Shown: positions 7,463 to 55,957, counted from the stretch's first letter. The stretch: DNA of 64,000 nt from Spirochaetia bacterium (GCA_965198005.1 CBDAOI010000004.1:2126763-2190762), one strand, 5' to 3'. Notes: generated by a model from the letters alone, not told the origin. A program made the numbers and translations.

Positions 7463-7535
7463 AGCCAGAAAGGGGATTCGAACCCCTGACCTGTTCATTA
7501 CGAGTGAACCGCTCTGCCAACTGAGCTATTCTGGC
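7463..7535 (-). tRNA. tRNA-Thr (anticodon CGU)
   Basis: Cloverleaf folded by hand: 7-bp acceptor stem GCCAGAA/UUCUGGC, D-arm GCUC-AGUUGGCA-GAGC, anticodon loop CUCGUAA, T-arm AGGGG-UUCGAAU-CCCCU. CCA is not encoded. Confidence 0.85.
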
Positions 7536-7590: not shown

Positions 7591-8265
7591 TCAGTCTTCG
7601 CTGGCCGGCGCGGCCAATCCATCCAGCAGCAACCCGGTGAACGCGTCCGCGAGTCGGTCGCCGGCAGCCAGCAGCGCCTGCATCTGGGTATCTCCCATCT
7701 GGGCGAGCAGGTCGATCCCGAGACTGATGGCGTACACCAGGCGGGCCACCACCGGCAGGTCCACCGGGCGGACCACCCCGGCCTCGACTCCGGCCTGCAG
7801 ACCGCGTTCCGCCTTGGCGACCCCCGGACGGATCAGGTGGCCATATACGTACTCCGTCAGCTCGGCGTCCGCCAGCACCGCGGACAGCAGCGCGGTCAAG
7901 GTTTGCCGCTGTGGCCGCCCGGTGCGGACCCGGGCACTGATCACGTGCCGATAGCGGCTGCGCAGGTCTTCGCCCGCGGCGCCCGGCGGCGCACCGGCAG
8001 CGCGAATCTCTTCGATCACCCGCTGCAGAACGCCCAGAAACAGATCGCGCTTGCTGTCGAAATGATGGTACAGCGCCCCTTCCGACAGTTTCGCGGCGGC
8101 CGCGATCGTCTTGGTCGTGGCCTGCTCGTAGCCGCGCTCGGTAAATACCCGCGTGGCTGCCCGAATGATGTGCTCGCGCCGACCTCTCCCGGCGCGCCGA
8201 CTTTCCGGTTTCGGTTCGGGCGCGGCCTGACGGCCCGTCTCCGATGGCTCTCGCTGCAACGCCAT
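7591..8265 (-). CDS. TetR/AcrR family transcriptional regulator
   Basis: N-terminal HTH with the signature I..AA..VF.ERGY..TT...IA.AA..S.GALYHHF. Start chosen at MALQREP (8265); the longer ORF start at 8403 is considered an over-extension. Confidence 0.8.
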   Translation of the reverse strand: MALQREPSETGRQAAPEPKPESRRAGRGRREHIIRAATRVFTERGYEQATTKTIAAAAKLSEGALYHHFDSKRDLFLGVLQRVIEEIRAAGAPPGAAGEDLRSRYRHVISARVRTGRPQRQTLTALLSAVLADAELTEYVYGHLIRPGVAKAERGLQAGVEAGVVRPVDLPVVARLVYAISLGIDLLAQMGDTQMQALLAAGDRLADAFTGLLLDGLAAPASED

Positions 8266-8392
8266 GTCAGTCTCCCCTCCCCAAGGTAGTGAGTGCTTGC
8301 TCCTAGCGCTAATGTACTGAGTAGTCCGCGTGCGCGTCCACCGGTGTGCGCCGGATGCGCCGCAGCCGCCGTAGCGGTACACTGCCAGCATC

Positions 8393-9952
8393 ATGCTGCC
8401 CAACCCGTCGTGGATCGGGTCCGCACTGAGCGATCTGCTGGTCGGAGATCCTGACCGCCACCGGCGTCCGGACTATCGGCAGGCGTTTTTCCTGGCACTG
8501 GCCAAGGTGCTTGGCGCAGCGGCCTGGGTCGACGCGCCGATCAATCAGAATGAAGTGAACGTGATCAAGACGCTGCTGCACGACCTTTCTCCACGCCTGA
8601 CGGCCCGCGAGCTGCAGCGGGTCGCGCGGTACCTCGAGGAGTCGGTCCCCGATGAACACTTTCGGGAGCTGGTGTCTCAGCTCGGCCGGTTCACGCGGCG
8701 CCGGGCGCGCCTGCGGTTTGCCGTGACCCGGCTGCTGGCGCTGCTGGCCGCGGACGGCACGCCGAACCAGCCGGAGCAGGAACTGTTCGAGCGGACCTGC
8801 GCGATTCTGGGCTGGAGTGGTGGTGATGGTGGTGGCGATGAGGAGCCGCCGGCGGCGAGCGCCCCGGGCCGCTCGCACCGGGTGCGGACGGGACTGCAGT
8901 TGGGCCGTCTCACCGGGCAGCCGGACGATGCTGCGCCACGGAGCCTGCTCGACCGGGTACGCACGGCCACCTGGGAGCGGCTGCAGGCGGGCGGCGGACA
9001 CGAGACTCCACCTGACAAACTGTACGTCCTGGCGGCGACGGTGGCGTTTCTGCGCGGCGCCCGCGTCGGGAACGTCGGCGAAGACGCGGAGCTGGTTGGC
9101 TTTACCGCAGCGGTGTCGGCGGTGCCCGACGACGTGGCGGAAGCAGCCCTTGCTGCGGCCCGGCAGTTCCCGGCGGCACCGGCCGAGCTGCCGGCGTTGG
9201 CCGCGGAGCTGCAGCGGCGCACGGATGCCACCGAGCTTGGTTCACTGGCGCAACTGTTGAACGCCATGGCCGACGGCGAGGCGGCACTGCGCCGGCTGCG
9301 TCAACTTGCCAGCCCCGCTGACCGCATGGCGGCCACCATTGACCACCTGGTGTACGGCGTGCCCGAACTGGAGGCCGGCGTCGCGTTGCTGCGCGAACAA
9401 TTCGGAGTGTCCGCCGTCTACGGGGGCCGGCATGAAGGACGCGGCACGCACAACGCGCTGCTCGGATTGGGCGGCGATGCATATTTGGAGGTGATCGCGC
9501 CGGACCCTTCCCAGCCGTCGAACCCGGGGGGCCGGAGGTTTCTCCTGGAAGACCTGGATCGGCCGCGTCTGATCACGTTCGCCGTCAGAGTTCGCGGCCT
9601 CGAGCAGCGGCGCGCACGCGCTGTCAGCCGCGGCTACGATCCGGGACCGGTGACTGCCATGAGTCGGCGGCGGCCGGACGGCGCGCTGTTGCGCTGGCAA
9701 CTGTGCCGCGCCCCGGAACCGCCGTTTGGAGGGGTCGTGCCGTTTCTGATCGATTGGGGAGCCACGCCCAGTCCCGCACACTCTGCGCCGGCCGGCTGCC
9801 GCCTGGACCGACTGCAGGTCGCTCATCCCGATCCGGACCGGGTCCGTCAGGTGCTGCACGCCATCGACGTAACGATTCCGGCTGAGCGCGGCCCGGCGCC
9901 CGCGCTGCATGCCGAGTTGCAAACCCCAAGAGGACGTGTCATGCTCCGTTAG
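8393..9952 (+). CDS. fusion protein: TerB-like N-terminal domain + C-terminal glyoxalase-like (VOC) domain
   Basis: Residues about 30-150 resemble a tellurite-resistance TerB / DjlA N-terminal domain. Residues about 300-440 carry GGRHEGRGTHNALLGLGGDAYLEVIAPDP, which matches the glyoxalase-like domain family. An Ala/Pro/Asp-rich linker sits between them. Confidence 0.55.
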   Translation: MLPNPSWIGSALSDLLVGDPDRHRRPDYRQAFFLALAKVLGAAAWVDAPINQNEVNVIKTLLHDLSPRLTARELQRVARYLEESVPDEHFRELVSQLGRFTRRRARLRFAVTRLLALLAADGTPNQPEQELFERTCAILGWSGGDGGGDEEPPAASAPGRSHRVRTGLQLGRLTGQPDDAAPRSLLDRVRTATWERLQAGGGHETPPDKLYVLAATVAFLRGARVGNVGEDAELVGFTAAVSAVPDDVAEAALAAARQFPAAPAELPALAAELQRRTDATELGSLAQLLNAMADGEAALRRLRQLASPADRMAATIDHLVYGVPELEAGVALLREQFGVSAVYGGRHEGRGTHNALLGLGGDAYLEVIAPDPSQPSNPGGRRFLLEDLDRPRLITFAVRVRGLEQRRARAVSRGYDPGPVTAMSRRRPDGALLRWQLCRAPEPPFGGVVPFLIDWGATPSPAHSAPAGCRLDRLQVAHPDPDRVRQVLHAIDVTIPAERGPAPALHAELQTPRGRVMLR

Positions 9953-50234: not shown

Positions 50235-50327
50235 TATCGATCCCGCAGCCGGCGATAGACTTCGAGACGCACTGCAACGCATAATGACAACCATGTCGTT
50301 CATGCTGCCCCCGCGTTCGTTGGCAAC

Positions 50328-53795
<3,468 letters not shown>

Positions 53796-53860
53796 GCCGC
53801 AAGCGACGTTCCGCCGCCCCCGCGGAAGAAAGGGGGAGCGGAGCCGTCGGAGAGGTGTAC

Positions 53861-54082
53861 GTGAGCGCAGAGCTGATCGGAATAATTGCCGCGCCGATCG
53901 TCCTCGGTACCGCCATGCTCGCGTCGATACGCAGCGTCCGCCACGACGTGCGCGGCGTCCGCGACGAGCTACGAGGCGAGATTCACGGCCTCCGCAACGA
54001 AATGAACTCCTTCCTATCCCATTTGCGTCGTTATTCTCCGCGCCAGATGGTCGAAGTCTTCATGGCACTTCTGTCGAATTGA
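53861..54082 (+). CDS. small hypothetical membrane-anchored protein (questionable)
   Basis: GTG start after GGAGAGG. It overlaps the 3' end of the convergent DUF4276 gene by 69 nt, so it may be spurious. Confidence 0.2.
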   Translation: MSAELIGIIAAPIVLGTAMLASIRSVRHDVRGVRDELRGEIHGLRNEMNSFLSHLRRYSPRQMVEVFMALLSN

Positions 54083-54580
54083 GGCTACTCTCCGAGAGGC
54101 CTCCTCTCCCAACGGACCACGTCCACGGCCCGGATCATTGGCCACACCCCGTTCTCGAGCAAGCACGGCAAAGTATCGCTCCTTCACGGATACTTCACTG
54201 CGGACGTCGGACCACCTCCAGTCGCTAGGGAGATCAAGACCGGCGAGGACCCAGGTTTCCAACTCCTCCCACGCATTTTCGGCAAGGAACCGTCGGGGCA
54301 GGTTACCGAACTCTTTTTCGATTTGGTCGAGACGCCGGCGCCGCGAAGCAACACCGTCCCGGTCAACGCACAGGATGAACAGATCGGTCATCCCATCATA
54401 CTGTTCGACGATTTCCGCCACCCGTTCTGACTTCAACGCCTCATCAACGCCTCCAAGCAACGGATCCGTGCACACCGTGACGGTCGCCCGCACACTCAGA
54501 GATCGGAACAACCGCTGGAAAAGAGGCCTGAGAATATACTGATCATTCCGAAAGTCCTCAGGAATAATGAGGACGTTCAT
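54014..54580 (-). CDS. DUF4276/RloB-like TOPRIM-fold protein (AbiLii/AriB-like partner of the adjacent ATPase)
   Basis: N-terminal IIPED (TOPRIM Glu), LFILCVDRDGV (DxD) and the E.W..LA motif typical of the RloB/DUF4276 family. The start overlaps the ATPase stop (ATGA). Lower GC than the genome. Confidence 0.6.
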   Translation of the reverse strand: MNVLIIPEDFRNDQYILRPLFQRLFRSLSVRATVTVCTDPLLGGVDEALKSERVAEIVEQYDGMTDLFILCVDRDGVASRRRRLDQIEKEFGNLPRRFLAENAWEELETWVLAGLDLPSDWRWSDVRSEVSVKERYFAVLARERGVANDPGRGRGPLGEEASRRVASIRQKCHEDFDHLARRITTQMG

Positions 54581-55851
54581 CTAGAGTTTTCTCCATCCTT
54601 GCTCAGGTCGAACAGGACCGCGTTCTCCATCCAGCCGGACCGGTGGAGCCGTCCCAGTCCCTGCGACCGGCGTAACTTGACGGCGTTGGGTAACTTCGAG
54701 ACCGGAAGTACCACGGCATCGTCGGTATCCGGACGCCGGCACACAACGGACGTGTTCTCGAACGTGTCGGTGCCCACCAGTTCGATCAGGTCGGGTGAAT
54801 GGGTAGTGGTAACCACCTGGTACTCGCCGTTTGAAGTCTGGCCTTCGATCAGGTCGATCAGTAACTGCTGACGTGACGGATGAATCCCGTTATCGATCTC
54901 TTCGAACACGTAGAGGCCGGCCGGATTGGTCCCGAGCAGGGCCGCCAGCATCGCGAGAAAGCGCAGCGTCCCATCCGATGCGGAATAGGCGGACACCCTG
55001 TTGCCGTTCCGTTCGCAAAAGACGAGCTGGACGTGCCCGGTAGTCGGATCGGTCGGAAACTCGAAGTCGTGCACGTCCATCGGCGTCAGGGCTCGGGTCC
55101 ATTCCGCCAGTGTGATCTTGCGCCGTTCGTCCGTGCAAATCTCTTTCAGTACGGTAGACAGATTCCCACCGCTATCGCCCAGTACGGTCTGGCCTGGAAA
55201 CGCGGGTTGCCTCATACTGTTTGGCGACAAATCCAAGAAACGCATGTCGGCAAGGATCTTCATGACCCGCTCCGCCCATATCTTATGGAGCCTTACAACA
55301 CGTTTGTGTTCTCCAATCTGTGCCAGCGCCGGCTGGTCCGACCGCACCGCGATTCGGTGGCCGTATTTTTTCTGCTCTCCGGTCTTTGCCATGCGAAGCA
55401 GGAGATGGTTTTCGTGATCCTGATCGTGAACCGGATCGTACTTTCCGGGATGGCTCGTGTAAATCGGAGATCCGGCTAATTTCAGTTGTTCCGCGATTAC
55501 CTTGAATGATCCGGATTCTGCTCTGTCCATCCGAACCACGATCACGTAGGTCACCGTACTGCCATTCAGGGCAAGTCTCAACGACAGAGTGAATTGGGAG
55601 TGGCCGAAGCGCACCAGTTCCCTGGCCGTGCCTCGAATCTGCTCCCACTCAACGTGACCGCCGGCCCCGTACTTACCGCCAATGATGTCGGCCAGAGTGT
55701 ACCCTCGCCCAATGCCGTGCAGGAATCTGAACGCGTCACGGAGGTTGCTCTTGCCGCTCGCGTTGGCGCCCACGATCACGGTGAACGGGCCCATGCGTAC
55801 CGTTGCGTCGGGAAAGTTTTTGAAGTTGATCAGACGAAGCGCAGTGATCAT
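54577..55851 (-). CDS. AAA family ATPase (ABC/SMC-like, AAA_15/21; AbiLi/AriA/OLD-ATPase-like)
   Basis: MITALRLINFKNF start, Walker A GANASGKSN, Walker B/D-loop LYVFEEIDNGIHP, H-loop TTHSP. GC is about 55-58%. Start set at ATG 55851, not the TTG at 55917 used by the ORF caller. A TATAAT lies at 55900-55905. Confidence 0.8.
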   Translation of the reverse strand: MITALRLINFKNFPDATVRMGPFTVIVGANASGKSNLRDAFRFLHGIGRGYTLADIIGGKYGAGGHVEWEQIRGTARELVRFGHSQFTLSLRLALNGSTVTYVIVVRMDRAESGSFKVIAEQLKLAGSPIYTSHPGKYDPVHDQDHENHLLLRMAKTGEQKKYGHRIAVRSDQPALAQIGEHKRVVRLHKIWAERVMKILADMRFLDLSPNSMRQPAFPGQTVLGDSGGNLSTVLKEICTDERRKITLAEWTRALTPMDVHDFEFPTDPTTGHVQLVFCERNGNRVSAYSASDGTLRFLAMLAALLGTNPAGLYVFEEIDNGIHPSRQQLLIDLIEGQTSNGEYQVVTTTHSPDLIELVGTDTFENTSVVCRRPDTDDAVVLPVSKLPNAVKLRRSQGLGRLHRSGWMENAVLFDLSKDGENSR

Positions 55852-55957
55852 GGGCGTCGGTGCGGGTGCGTCGGCGGCATACCGGAAGTCATGGCGCAGA
55901 TTATACCGTAAGGCCAACCAACTAGTCTGGCAACGGCACCGTCGAGGTGGACGGGCG

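Follow-up and report, generated by a model that had tools for sequence, protein, structure and literature searches.

A translationally coupled ABC-type ATPase and TOPRIM-like protein form a probable immune-type module in a Spirochaetia genome

Organization and composition of the cassette

Within the window, the whole 64-kb stretch of Spirochaetia DNA that was analyzed, ORF calling located two overlapping genes on the minus strand, flanked by genes for a PHP-UvrD helicase and a Na+/H+ exchanger.

54577..55851, minus strand: ABC/SMC-type ATPase, 424 aa, proposed sensor/regulator component (ORF and profiles)
54014..54580, minus strand: TOPRIM-like protein, 188 aa, predicted metal-dependent nuclease effector, distant from DUF4276
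54577..54580, minus strand: ATGA stop/start overlap of the ATPase and 188-aa genes, translational coupling (translation; the 4-nt overlap, at -4, is also found in 74 of 81 related cassettes)

The sequence-only reading of this DNA had placed two ATGA-coupled minus-strand genes here, and both ORF calling and translation agree with it; translation also returned every motif that it had quoted for the two proteins. The frame of the ATPase is open upstream to a TTG at 55917, and its start was assigned to the ATG at 55851, which coincides with position 1 of the family profile and with the starts of the homologues. The ATPase and the 188-aa protein form an obligate unit; the ATPase gene lies immediately upstream of the 188-aa gene in 80 of 80 related loci.

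The cassette has a GC content of 0.576, compared with 0.683 on average for the window; measured over segments of equal length (sd 0.026), this corresponds to z = -4.1, and no other part of the 64 kb is as poor in GC. Similarly, the GC3 values of the two genes are 0.61 and 0.71 versus 0.83–0.90 in five neighboring genes. The immediate neighbors have GC contents of 0.65–0.72, near the approximately 70% given earlier, and the description of a low-GC cassette survived calculation, with windowed GC differing from the rest of the window and GC3 from the neighboring genes. A TATAAT that had been proposed to drive the genes does occur on the minus strand (55905..55900); it is accompanied by no acceptable -35 element and was not called as a promoter. 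A promoter scan returned a single promoter-like site in the region, no more than shuffled sequences give. The region upstream of the ATPase is not conserved with respect to relatives, and the ATPase gene here has lost the Shine-Dalgarno site that the relatives keep. Because this site is lost and no convincing promoter was found, expression in the window is uncertain. Flanking direct or inverted repeats bounding the cassette were not found above chance, and there is no tRNA near it, the only tRNA of the window lying at 7463..7535.

Motifs and fold of the ATPase

Based on Pfam profile searches, the upstream protein is an ABC/SMC-type ATPase of the AAA_21/AAA_15 kind, as had been read from its motifs. 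It matches AAA_21 (7.2e-32), AAA_15 (5.3e-17), and SMC_N (2.6e-15, across residues 1–358). The top PADLOC model is PDC-M07A (E 1.5e-65), which aligns end to end, with residues 1–412 against model positions 1–407 of 432, followed by HEC-01A (5.7e-41). Kinship with RecF, which would have spoken against the earlier assignment, was not seen: the RecF model TIGR00611 scores 31.1 bits against a cutoff of 172 and covers residues 2–44 only. The features of the protein are as follows.

55744..55770, minus strand: Walker A GANASGKSN, aa 28–36 (translation; invariant in 45 homologues)
55252..55629, minus strand: hypervariable Insert 1, aa 75–200, proposed trigger-recognition surface (alignment and AF2)
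54967..54978, minus strand: ABC signature SDGT, aa 292–295 (translation; A291-S-D-G-T295 invariant)
54877..54915, minus strand: Walker B and D-loop LYVFEEIDNGIHP, aa 313–325 (translation and homologue alignment)
54793..54807, minus strand: H-loop TTHSP, aa 349–353 (translation and homologue alignment)

Walker A, signature, Walker B, D-loop, H-loop, and head fold of an SMC/Rad50-like ABC ATPase are all found. In the AF2 model (pTM 0.83), the closest solved folds are the heads of Septu/retron PtuA, Rad50, and SMC (Foldseek E ~1e-11, probability 1.00, TM 0.4–0.5), with which the protein is 12–16% identical. This likeness holds at the level of a generic ABC head only, and the partners differ, being an HNH protein for PtuA (PtuB) and Mre11 for Rad50.

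The variable part of the ATPase is Insert 1, predicted to fold as a four-stranded beta-sheet (strands 86–95, 98–108, 116–125, and 128–133 in the AF2 model), a loop, and a helix. Its mean pairwise identity is 0.16–0.31 versus 0.6–0.93 in the remaining ATPase, and its dN/dS is 0.20–0.73 versus 0.05–0.21 in the core. In some pairs of ATPases, the core is ~90% identical and Insert 1 ~20%. Moreover, two diverged copies of the cassette were seen per genome, with unrelated inserts. Insert 1 is hypervariable and is exchanged among otherwise 90%-identical ATPase backbones; it would be the sensing element of the ATPase.

A predicted TOPRIM-type active site in the 188-aa protein

The family of the 188-aa protein was aligned at two depths, with 39 close sequences (A1) and with 67 diverse ones (A2, 36% mean column identity). 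The following positions stand out.

54554..54565, minus strand: IPED, TOPRIM glutamate E8 right after strand 1 (invariant in 67 sequences)
54542..54544, minus strand: D13, candidate counterpart of OLD E404 (invariant in 67 sequences)
54449..54454, minus strand: G43-G44, glycine after strand 2, TOPRIM motif (alignments)
54356..54364, minus strand: D73-R-D75, TOPRIM DxD after strand 3 (translation and alignments)
54251..54271, minus strand: WEELETW, aa 104–110, acidic helix after strand 4, with E106/E108 as candidate metal-B ligands
54182..54184, minus strand: K133, lysine of the helical domain, candidate counterpart of OLD K562 (conservation)

In the predicted beta-alpha-beta core, E8 follows the first strand (residues 2–7), G43 and G44 follow the second (33–36), and the DRD comes directly behind the third (67–72), in line with the Toprim superfamily, in which a glutamate, a glycine, and a DxD follow strands 1, 2, and 3, respectively. 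E8 is invariant in both alignments; both glycines are invariant in A1, with G44 at ≥90% in A2, and the DRD is likewise invariant in A1 and ≥90% conserved in A2. The TOPRIM signature that had been read at IPED and DRD therefore lies where it was placed and is kept by the relatives. Furthermore, in A2, E108 is invariant and E106 is ≥90% conserved, while K133 is invariant in A1 and ≥90% conserved in A2. For the OLD nuclease, the work that gives the TOPRIM motif definition and active site lists E404, T506/E508, and K562 in the catalytic set (PMC6755086). The conserved residues E8, G44, D73xD75, D13, E106/E108, and K133 appear to match this set; by analogy, E106/E108 are candidate metal-B ligands likened to T506/E508, and K133 would be the equivalent of K562. 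On this residue pattern, the 188-aa protein is predicted to be a metal-dependent nuclease.

The pattern also bears on a different role, in which the 188-aa protein is a Rossmann-like, MID-like adaptor that binds nucleic-acid ends or nucleotides and leaves the activity to the ATPase. A cluster of seven conserved residues, acidic or basic, occupies canonical TOPRIM positions, and strand 4 is followed by an acidic helix; MID domains have no such cluster. Moreover, DUF4276 and RloB are placed in the Toprim superfamily (PMC12065111), and HEC-01B superposes on the metal site of OLD (Payne et al. 2024, bioRxiv 10.1101/2024.01.29.577857). An adaptor of this kind is thus improbable.

The family membership proposed earlier, DUF4276/RloB, failed at the level of profiles. 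Against DUF4276 (PF14103), the protein scores 15.9 bits (E 0.015), below the gathering threshold of 30.2, and RloB (PF13707) gave no match at E ≤ 1. Among the 67 diverse members, DUF4276 is the sole recurrent Pfam match (30 members, weak, best 2e-7), and weak RloB matches occur in five (best E 0.0018). No Pfam domain is precomputed for any of the best 120 listed homologues of the 188-aa protein, whereas PF14103 is present in all 120 that are listed for HEC-01B. The comparison of the family with true DUF4276 by hhalign gave E 0.0025 and a probability of only 12%; the alignment covers the whole core with the motifs in register and sets WEELETW against the DUF4276 'CRELExFY'. The E.W..LA motif noted earlier is thus upheld, as an 'ELExW/FxLA' motif that aligns with true DUF4276. 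The family comprises ~2,600 proteins and has no Pfam, NCBIfam, or PADLOC model. Foldseek found no solved structure below E 0.03 in the PDB, and a profile search of PDB sequences returned nothing relevant. The dN/dS of the protein is 0.11–0.47. From these profile comparisons, the 188-aa protein is best placed in a separate sister family to DUF4276, for which no model exists.

Distribution and transfer

The 80 related loci span at least 10 phyla, and several belong to MAGs of sponge symbionts. About 70% stand alone amid unrelated housekeeping genes, not in defence islands, and no recombinase was seen in the standalone neighborhoods. Another 22–24 of the 80 (~28%) sit between DUF1156 and DUF499 genes in operons of the Hma/MADS type; the pair is thus also used as an embedded cassette within DUF1156-methylase/DUF499 operons in other genomes. 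The window copy is standalone, and searches of the 64 kb with the Hma neighbors of two related loci (L012 and L060) found no homologues of DUF1156 or DUF499.

The cassette has clearly moved between phyla. Copies from different phyla share 91–93% identity, over a segment that spans just the gene pair (-21 to +12 nt), and the GC content of the cassette is below that of the host in 64 of 76 loci. It occurs in two plasmid records and in no phage record. Both genes are under strong purifying selection.

Closer to the window, a 99%-identical ATPase lies on one metagenome contig, whose synteny matches that of the window. The cassette is also found next to the same PHP-UvrD gene in two further Spirochaetia species, where its nucleotide identity is 75% and dS is saturated (1.25–1.4). 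Helicase and cassette together make up a 5.5-kb block, and the window and these two MAGs have no other DNA in common. Since the site is the same in two species at 75% identity with saturated dS, the acquisition is not recent. Of the recent horizontal acquisition proposed earlier, the horizontal part is upheld by the inter-phylum transfer and the odd composition, while the recent part is not supported, given the saturated dS. An empty-site search through Na+/H+ exchanger homologues in metagenomes gave seven loci, none of them syntenic.

We also considered the PHP-UvrD helicase as a conserved component of the system, by analogy with Gabija and class 2 OLD. A UvrD neighbor is present in 3 of 81 loci, all of this lineage; the gene is convergent to the cassette, and its GC3 of 0.90 is host-like. 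Because no other lineage has a UvrD neighbor, the genes are convergent, and the GC3 is host-like, the helicase was rejected as a component.

Comparison with known systems

Searches of Pfam and PADLOC with both proteins, which the sequence-only reading had suggested, matched the ATPase (AAA_21/AAA_15, PDC-M07A) and left the 188-aa protein below the DUF4276 cutoff and without RloB. Judged by profile matches, the cassette comes nearest, among catalogued systems, to PADLOC PDC-M07 (for the ATPase only), HEC-01, and Mad3-Mad4 of MADS.

HEC-01, Hma-embedded candidate 01, is the nearest relative of the pair to have been assayed; it joins an ABC ATPase to a DUF4276 TOPRIM protein, is defined by its embedding in an Hma operon, and in E. 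coli protected against none of the phages tried (Payne et al. 2024). Similar to HEC-01, the cassette has the order of ABC ATPase followed by a TOPRIM-type protein of ~190 aa, and the DUF1156-DUF499 embedding is met in ~28% of its relatives. HEC-01B is also the commonest PADLOC match in the 188-aa family (24 of 67). In contrast, the 188-aa protein of the window matches HEC-01B only weakly (E 0.0042, 14.9 bits), the B proteins can be aligned at the profile level only, the ATPase is 24% identical to the tested P. agarici HEC-01A, and the window copy lies outside any Hma operon.

PDC-M07 (FAM_00005>>FAM_01367) supplies the best model of the ATPase, PDC-M07A, and the ATPase superfamily FAM_00005 is common to PDC-M07 and HEC-01 (Payne et al., supplement). 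However, PDC-M07B (FAM_01367) matches neither the window partner nor any of the 67 family members, so the effector of the cassette comes from another protein family than that of PDC-M07. This PADLOC candidate was not named in the texts covered by our literature search.

In MADS of P. aeruginosa, Mad3, an AAA_21-type ATPase, and Mad4, a DUF4276 TOPRIM protein, are encoded in an operon of the DUF1156/DUF499 type, and deletion of mad3 and mad4 reduces defence. The pairing of an AAA_21-type ATPase with a TOPRIM-type protein is shared with the cassette, and the PADLOC mad3 model matches the window ATPase (1.2e-23). However, NCBIfam MAD3 (NF047739) gives 99.2 bits against a cutoff of 420, and the mad4 model matches 4 of the 67 family members and not the window protein. 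A MADS locus must also have Mad6, Mad7, and Mad8 nearby, and the search with the Hma neighbors of L012 and L060 found no DUF1156- or DUF499-type gene in the window.

For PARIS, the ABC ATPase AriA is a scaffold that senses a phage trigger via poorly conserved surfaces and frees AriB, a tRNA-cleaving DUF4435 TOPRIM protein; an insertion near the nucleotide-binding domain of AriA, IS1, is predicted to recognize the trigger. PARIS serves as a mechanistic template for reading the pair as an ATPase sensor with a TOPRIM effector. Nevertheless, the AriA model matches two stretches of the window ATPase, best at aa 281–357 (C-terminal motifs), AriA is absent from its best 50 fold neighbors, and the window ATPase is shorter (424 aa) and has no predicted coiled-coil insertion; the 188-aa protein has no DUF4435/AriB match. 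AbiL and RloA/RloB likewise combine an ATPase with a protein of the TOPRIM superfamily. The AbiLi model matches the window ATPase at 2.6e-24, and RloB is a TOPRIM family related to DUF4276, but the 188-aa protein matches neither AbiLii nor RloB. Thus, of the claim that the pair has the architecture of AbiL, RloA/RloB, and PARIS, the pairing of an ATPase with a TOPRIM-type protein held, whereas the assignment to these systems did not: the resemblance is that of a generic ATPase head, with AriB, AbiLii, and RloB unmatched.

Unlike the OLD family (class 1, P2 Old and Ts OLD; class 2, Bp OLD and GajA), the window carries its ATPase and Toprim on separate polypeptides; the sequence match to OLD 6p74 is limited to the first 41 residues, and the helicase neighbor is convergent, lineage-specific, and PHP-fused.

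Proposed mechanism and alternative explanations

We consider the pair to be, with fair probability, a self-contained two-gene module of the immune type, in the class of an ABC ATPase with a TOPRIM nuclease, and a split, OLD-like one. The class is already known as candidate anti-phage systems, and this branch of it lies outside the current family models. The ATPase may act as both sensor and gatekeeper through a nucleotide-binding head like that of Rad50, SMC, and PtuA, with the hypervariable, exchangeable Insert 1 (aa 75–200) recognizing a cue derived from the invader. The 188-aa protein, co-translated with the ATPase via the ATGA overlap, would be a two-metal TOPRIM nuclease that is presumed to form a complex with the ATPase and is probably inactive in it. 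Binding of the cue and an ATP-driven cycle of the head would release or activate the nuclease. Once freed, it might cut nucleic acid, either RNA such as tRNA or DNA, and halt phage replication or host growth. An anti-phage function of the pair is the role that we infer from this scheme.

Alternatively, the pair could be an orphaned accessory of restriction of the Hma/MADS type that needs a DUF1156 methylase, a DUF499 ATPase, and a helicase, with the window copy non-autonomous or inert. Full MADS defence needs both mad3 and mad4, deletion of mad5 is possible only together with removal of mad2 or mad3, HEC-01 by itself conferred no defence, and the window copy has no Shine-Dalgarno site; the ~28% of related loci between DUF1156 and DUF499 genes fit such a dependence as well. 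However, these genes are absent from the 64-kb window, and the ~70% of loci that stand alone keep both genes intact under strong purifying selection. Moreover, the ATGA coupling is conserved, and transfer between phyla involved precisely the gene pair (-21 to +12 nt). We regard dependence on the larger operon as unlikely.

A selfish role, in addiction or in competition between elements, is less probable still. The nuclease would then be toxin-like and restrained by the ATPase, and the pair would be kept by post-segregational effects or conflict between elements. Wide horizontal spread with anomalous GC, a minimal and tightly coupled cassette, the HEC-01 record of no demonstrated defence, and the Pfam description of AAA_21, which mentions AbiEii/type IV TA proteins, are consistent with it. 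Against this, the cassette is rare on plasmids, absent from phage records, and seen with neither recombinase nor terminal repeats, and a hypervariable, swapped insert fits the recognition of varied external targets better than it fits a fixed toxin-antitoxin pair.

Housekeeping DNA repair like that of RecF with the TOPRIM protein RecR, perhaps with the PHP-UvrD helicase, is disfavored to the point of being very improbable: the cassette adjoins a UvrD/PcrA-family helicase in this lineage and the ATPase weakly matches RecF and SMC models at its N-terminus, but the RecF match is 31 bits against 172 over only 44 residues, the distribution over taxa is patchy and horizontal, with GC below that of the host in most loci, the helicase is the convergent, host-like neighbor of 3 of 81 loci, and a hypervariable insert is unexpected in a repair protein.

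Implications

Beyond the immune-type module proposed above, we tentatively raise a further possibility, that the two proteins constitute an autonomous defence family so far in no catalogue. Its members would be a PDC-M07A-like ATPase with swappable specificity in Insert 1 and a TOPRIM effector that has no model, spread as a two-gene unit with neither promoter nor recombinase across at least 10 phyla, with several hosts being marine sponge symbionts. If so, the system would be widespread in host-associated marine bacteria of many phyla, and annotation tools would miss it because its effector has no model. If the pair is not autonomous, modules of the HEC-01/Mad3-4 type would still commonly survive away from their host operons, with strong purifying selection acting on them. 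The mobile unit is limited to the two genes and shows no mobility machinery, which also raises the question of how such small cassettes cross phyla and enter larger systems. Finally, the swapped Insert 1 on near-identical ATPases provides natural chimeras for mapping how immune sensors of the ABC-ATPase type recognize their triggers.

The gene pair and its ATPase

The sequence-only reading had placed two coupled minus-strand genes in the window, and both are present:

54577..55851, minus strand: ATPase gene, 424 aa counted from the ATG, reading frame reaching back to a TTG at 55917
54014..54580, minus strand: TOPRIM-like gene, 188 aa (the small protein)

The ATPase stop overlaps the start of the small gene as ATGA, and this 4-nt overlap is conserved in 74/81 cassettes. 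Translation confirmed every quoted motif, including Walker A GANASGKSN, signature SDGT, Walker B/D-loop LYVFEEIDNGIHP and H-loop TTHSP in the ATPase, and IPED, DRD and WEELETW in the small protein. A 73-aa ORF on the plus strand (53861..54082; GTG start, upstream GGAGAGG Shine-Dalgarno-like site) is antisense to the final 69 nt of the small gene. Its product combines a hydrophobic helix at the N terminus with a coiled-coil-like tail; among related Spirochaetia loci, L002 holds a weak counterpart at the equivalent place (46% over 39 aa), and the segment is missing from L001.

The ATPase carries the ABC-ATPase motifs and matches AAA_21 (7e-32), AAA_15 (5e-17) and SMC_N (3e-15, residues 1-358) in Pfam, so its assignment as an SMC/ABC-type protein stands. 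The top PADLOC model was PDC-M07A (1.5e-65, end to end), from an untested candidate system, followed by HEC-01A (5.7e-41); the AriA, AbiLi, mad3 and PtuA models matched more weakly than these two. MAD3 equivalog membership failed in NCBIfam (99 bits, cutoff 420), and a RecF identity was rejected because that model scored 31 bits (cutoff 172) and its match is confined to the first 44 residues. Sequence matches in the PDB were confined to SMC, OLD and PtuA head motifs. The nearest folds to the AF2 model (pTM 0.83) were PtuA, Rad50 and SMC heads (E about 1e-11, identity 12-16%), and AriA, GajA and OLD were missing from the top 50. The protein is thus an ABC ATPase head of SMC/Rad50/PtuA type, and no solved structure is closely related to it.

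A TOPRIM-like family related to DUF4276

Homologues of the small protein numbered 2580 at E <= 1e-3 in a 5.8-billion-protein set, and the best 120 of these are at least 67% identical and have no precomputed Pfam domain. An exhaustive profile search with the family gave 645 clusters (50% identity) at E <= 1e-3. The protein had been called DUF4276/RloB-like. In the window copy, DUF4276 scored 15.9 bits, under the Pfam cutoff of 30.2, RloB gave no match, NCBIfam gave none, and the sole PADLOC match was HEC-01B (E 0.004); membership in DUF4276 and in RloB was thus rejected. Among 67 diverse members (mean column identity 36%), DUF4276 alone recurred among Pfam families (30/67, best 2e-7), with RloB in 5/67; PADLOC returned HEC-01B for 24/67, mad4 for 4/67 and PDC-M07B for 0/67. 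For profile comparison, we gathered homologues of the tested HEC-01B sequence ('DUF4276 family protein') from the supplement of Payne et al. (2024, bioRxiv 10.1101/2024.01.29.577857); every one among the matches listed carries PF14103. Hhalign gave E 0.0025 and probability 12% over 111 columns, pairing VLVIPED with LVFLLEE, VDRDG with RDQDS and AxQExExWxLAG with ACRELExFYLAD (small-protein family first, DUF4276 second). The sub-cutoff score together with the motif-aligned profiles points to a distant sister of DUF4276, a non-member by the curated criterion. Remote DUF4276 kinship thus survives from the earlier assignment.

Three motifs define TOPRIM domains: Glu after strand 1, Gly after strand 2 and DxD after strand 3 (PMC6755086). 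In the AF2 model of the small protein (pLDDT 88.6, pTM 0.85), strands 2-7, 33-36, 67-72 and 96-102 alternate with helices and are followed by a helical bundle. The split signature seen earlier (Glu plus DxD) holds: E8 after strand 1 is invariant, and G44 after strand 2 and D73-R-D75 after strand 3 are conserved. Moreover, invariant D13 is a candidate for the OLD acidic residue 4-5 positions past the Glu, conserved E106 and E108 for the OLD acidic helix past strand 4, and conserved K133 for the Lys supplied by the OLD helical domain.

An AbiL, RloA/RloB or PARIS architecture had also been proposed. The split ATPase and TOPRIM motifs are there, but the AriB, AbiLii and RloB tests failed, which removes PARIS and AbiL membership; the PDC-M07B partner test failed as well. 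Collectively, the pair is an M07A-like ATPase with an unmodelled, DUF4276-related TOPRIM family, an architecture that will not surprise a specialist.

Genomic context

A genome-collection scan gave 331 loci, of which the best 80 (L001-L080) were fetched. All 80 have an ATPase homologue (46-77% identity) directly 5' of the small gene (62-79% identity). In 22-24 of the 80, the pair is flanked by a DUF1156 protein (~1080 aa) on one side and a DUF499 protein (~1100 aa) on the other. This is the Hma/MADS-type arrangement (Hma, helicase-methylase-ATPase operon; MADS, methylation-associated defence system) that served to define HEC-01 through 'guilt by embedding' (Payne et al.). The nearest neighbours of the remaining loci are heterogeneous, metabolic or housekeeping genes (117 Pfam families, each in <=3 loci), with no integrase or transposase family among the 25 most frequent neighbour families listed. 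The 64-kb window lacks DUF1156 and DUF499 homologues; there, the cassette is flanked by a PHP-UvrD/PcrA-type helicase and a Na+/H+ exchanger with a CBS domain, then RluD, YggS and PdxS. The sole tRNA lies well away from the cassette, and a tRNA-associated integration site is therefore not involved:

7463..7535, minus strand: tRNA-Thr (CGT)

A further, distant ABC ATPase gene (24-27% identity) occurs near the cassette in L036 (10708..11811), L029 (11569..12774), L006 (18741..19784) and L037 (543..1697). The one in L036 has the cassette on one side and the DUF499 gene on the other, suggesting that embedded cassettes stand in tandem there. L029 has a 76-aa DUF499 fragment just downstream of the cassette, possibly a remnant of an Hma operon.

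Composition, age and transfer

The anomalously low GC noted by eye was confirmed: the cassette is the lowest-GC segment of the window (0.576 vs 0.683; z = -4.1, sd 0.026, equal-length windows), with GC3 of 0.61 and 0.71 vs 0.83-0.90 in five neighbouring genes. Across loci, cassette GC is more than 0.02 below the flanks in 64/76 and above them by that margin in 0/76. Acquisition had been read as recent; however, the Spirochaetia MAGs L001 and L002 have in common with the window only one block, the PHP(TIGR00375/MJ0043_C)-UvrD/PcrA fusion helicase plus the cassette:

window 50324..55858
L001 8723..14213
L002 4926..10577

At the nucleotide level the helicase is 81-91% identical and the cassette, whose dS is saturated (1.25-1.4), 75%; homology ends within a few nt of two outward-facing start codons, with unrelated flanks on both sides. 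The low GC has therefore been kept since before these three species diverged. The helicase adjacency, seen in the window lineage only, is reminiscent of OLD class 2/Gabija. No repeats bound the window cassette, and an empty site at its locus was searched for and not found.

Horizontal transfer of the pair is supported by its low GC and by closely similar copies across phyla. At least 10 phyla are represented among the hosts of the 80 loci, with groups including Spirochaetota, Acidobacteriota, Pseudomonadota (alpha, gamma), Latescibacterota, Chloroflexota, Nitrospirota, Gemmatimonadota, Binatota, Rhodothermaceae and Mycobacteriaceae. L029 (a Gemmatimonadota MAG) is 91-93% identical over 1859 nt to L054 and L057 (Latescibacterota); the L029 contig may be mis-binned, but the flanks differ regardless. 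Homology runs from 21 nt upstream of the ATG, including the GGAGGA Shine-Dalgarno site, to 12 nt past the stop, and no mobility gene or repeat is evident at these cassettes. These limits make the transferred unit exactly the two genes, without promoter, repeats or recombinase. Only 2 plasmid records carry the family, and no phage record does. Several hosts are sponge-microbiome MAGs (SB06xx and RHO series confirmed sponge-derived), and sponge origin of many more is inferred from isolate names (Langseth, CAR, CO364 and p16x/jk18x point that way). Numerous long-read MAGs with UUID names come from phyla that sponge microbiomes typically contain. Marine sponge symbionts appear to account for a large part of the host genomes, and habitat-linked spread is possible.

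A TATAAT does lie at 55905..55900, but the proposal that it drives the cassette is not supported: it has no usable -35 and was not called by the promoter scan, which found nothing exceeding shuffle expectation in the cassette region. L001, L002 and most cassettes have the GGAGGA site 7-12 nt 5' of the ATPase ATG. The window counterpart (55852..55875, minus strand) reads CACCGACGCCC; with the site lost, initiation on the window ATPase may be weak.

Selection and an exchangeable insert

Both genes are maintained by selection (in related pairs, the ATPase core has dN/dS of 0.05-0.21 and the small protein 0.11-0.47). ATPase residues 75-200 (Insert 1) are hypervariable, with mean pairwise identity of 0.16-0.31 vs 0.6-0.93 elsewhere and dN/dS of 0.20-0.73. 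When L023 is compared with L029, L054 and L057, and L055 with L054, L057 and L072, the core is 86-91% identical but the insert 17-22%, and nucleotide homology picks up again at about +560-590; the insert has therefore been exchanged between genes that are otherwise nearly the same. Two genomes hold two diverged copies with unrelated inserts (L037 and L072, both OZ244619.1; L008 and L065, Defluviicoccus RHO1_bin_59; core 70-72%, insert 14-20% identity). The segment corresponds to 'Insert 1' of HEC ATPases (Payne et al.) and resembles the proposed trigger-recognition insertion of PARIS AriA; as in PARIS, the effector is conserved more than the sensor. In the AF2 model it forms a four-stranded sheet (86-133), a poorly predicted loop and a helix (187-201).

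Some relatives show decay. L064 has a ~1.2-kb insertion between two ATPase matches (~8257..9480), L067 an apparent frameshift near aa 374 (~9831), and L078 an ATPase match at aa 167-414 only; in L046 and L048, copies 99.6% identical and ~17 kb apart on one contig, the match is interrupted between aa 134 and 168.

Proposed mechanism

The pair reads as probably working like the split OLD-type systems PARIS, AbiL, MADS Mad3-4 and HEC-01. In the model that we consider reasonably probable, exchangeable Insert 1 of the ABC-ATPase sensor would recognise an invader cue, while the ATPase would keep the co-translated TOPRIM nuclease in check. Cue binding and the ATP cycle would then release or activate the nuclease, and its cleavage of RNA or DNA would abort infection. 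The motifs, the purifying selection and the insert exchange are direct observations, and from them we infer nuclease activity, complex formation, sensing by Insert 1 and defence itself. The main rival, that the pair functions only as an accessory of Hma/MADS systems, accords with the need for mad3 and mad4 in MADS defence, the inactivity of HEC-01 alone (Payne et al.) and the lost Shine-Dalgarno site in the window; it seems unlikely, since standalone loci predominate, such copies are under purifying selection, and what moves between phyla is the pair alone. Collectively, the sensor ATPase with a gated TOPRIM nuclease is the preferred reading, and the additions to this class are modest: an unmodelled effector family, insert swapping, an exact two-gene transfer unit, and cross-phylum spread that includes sponge symbionts.
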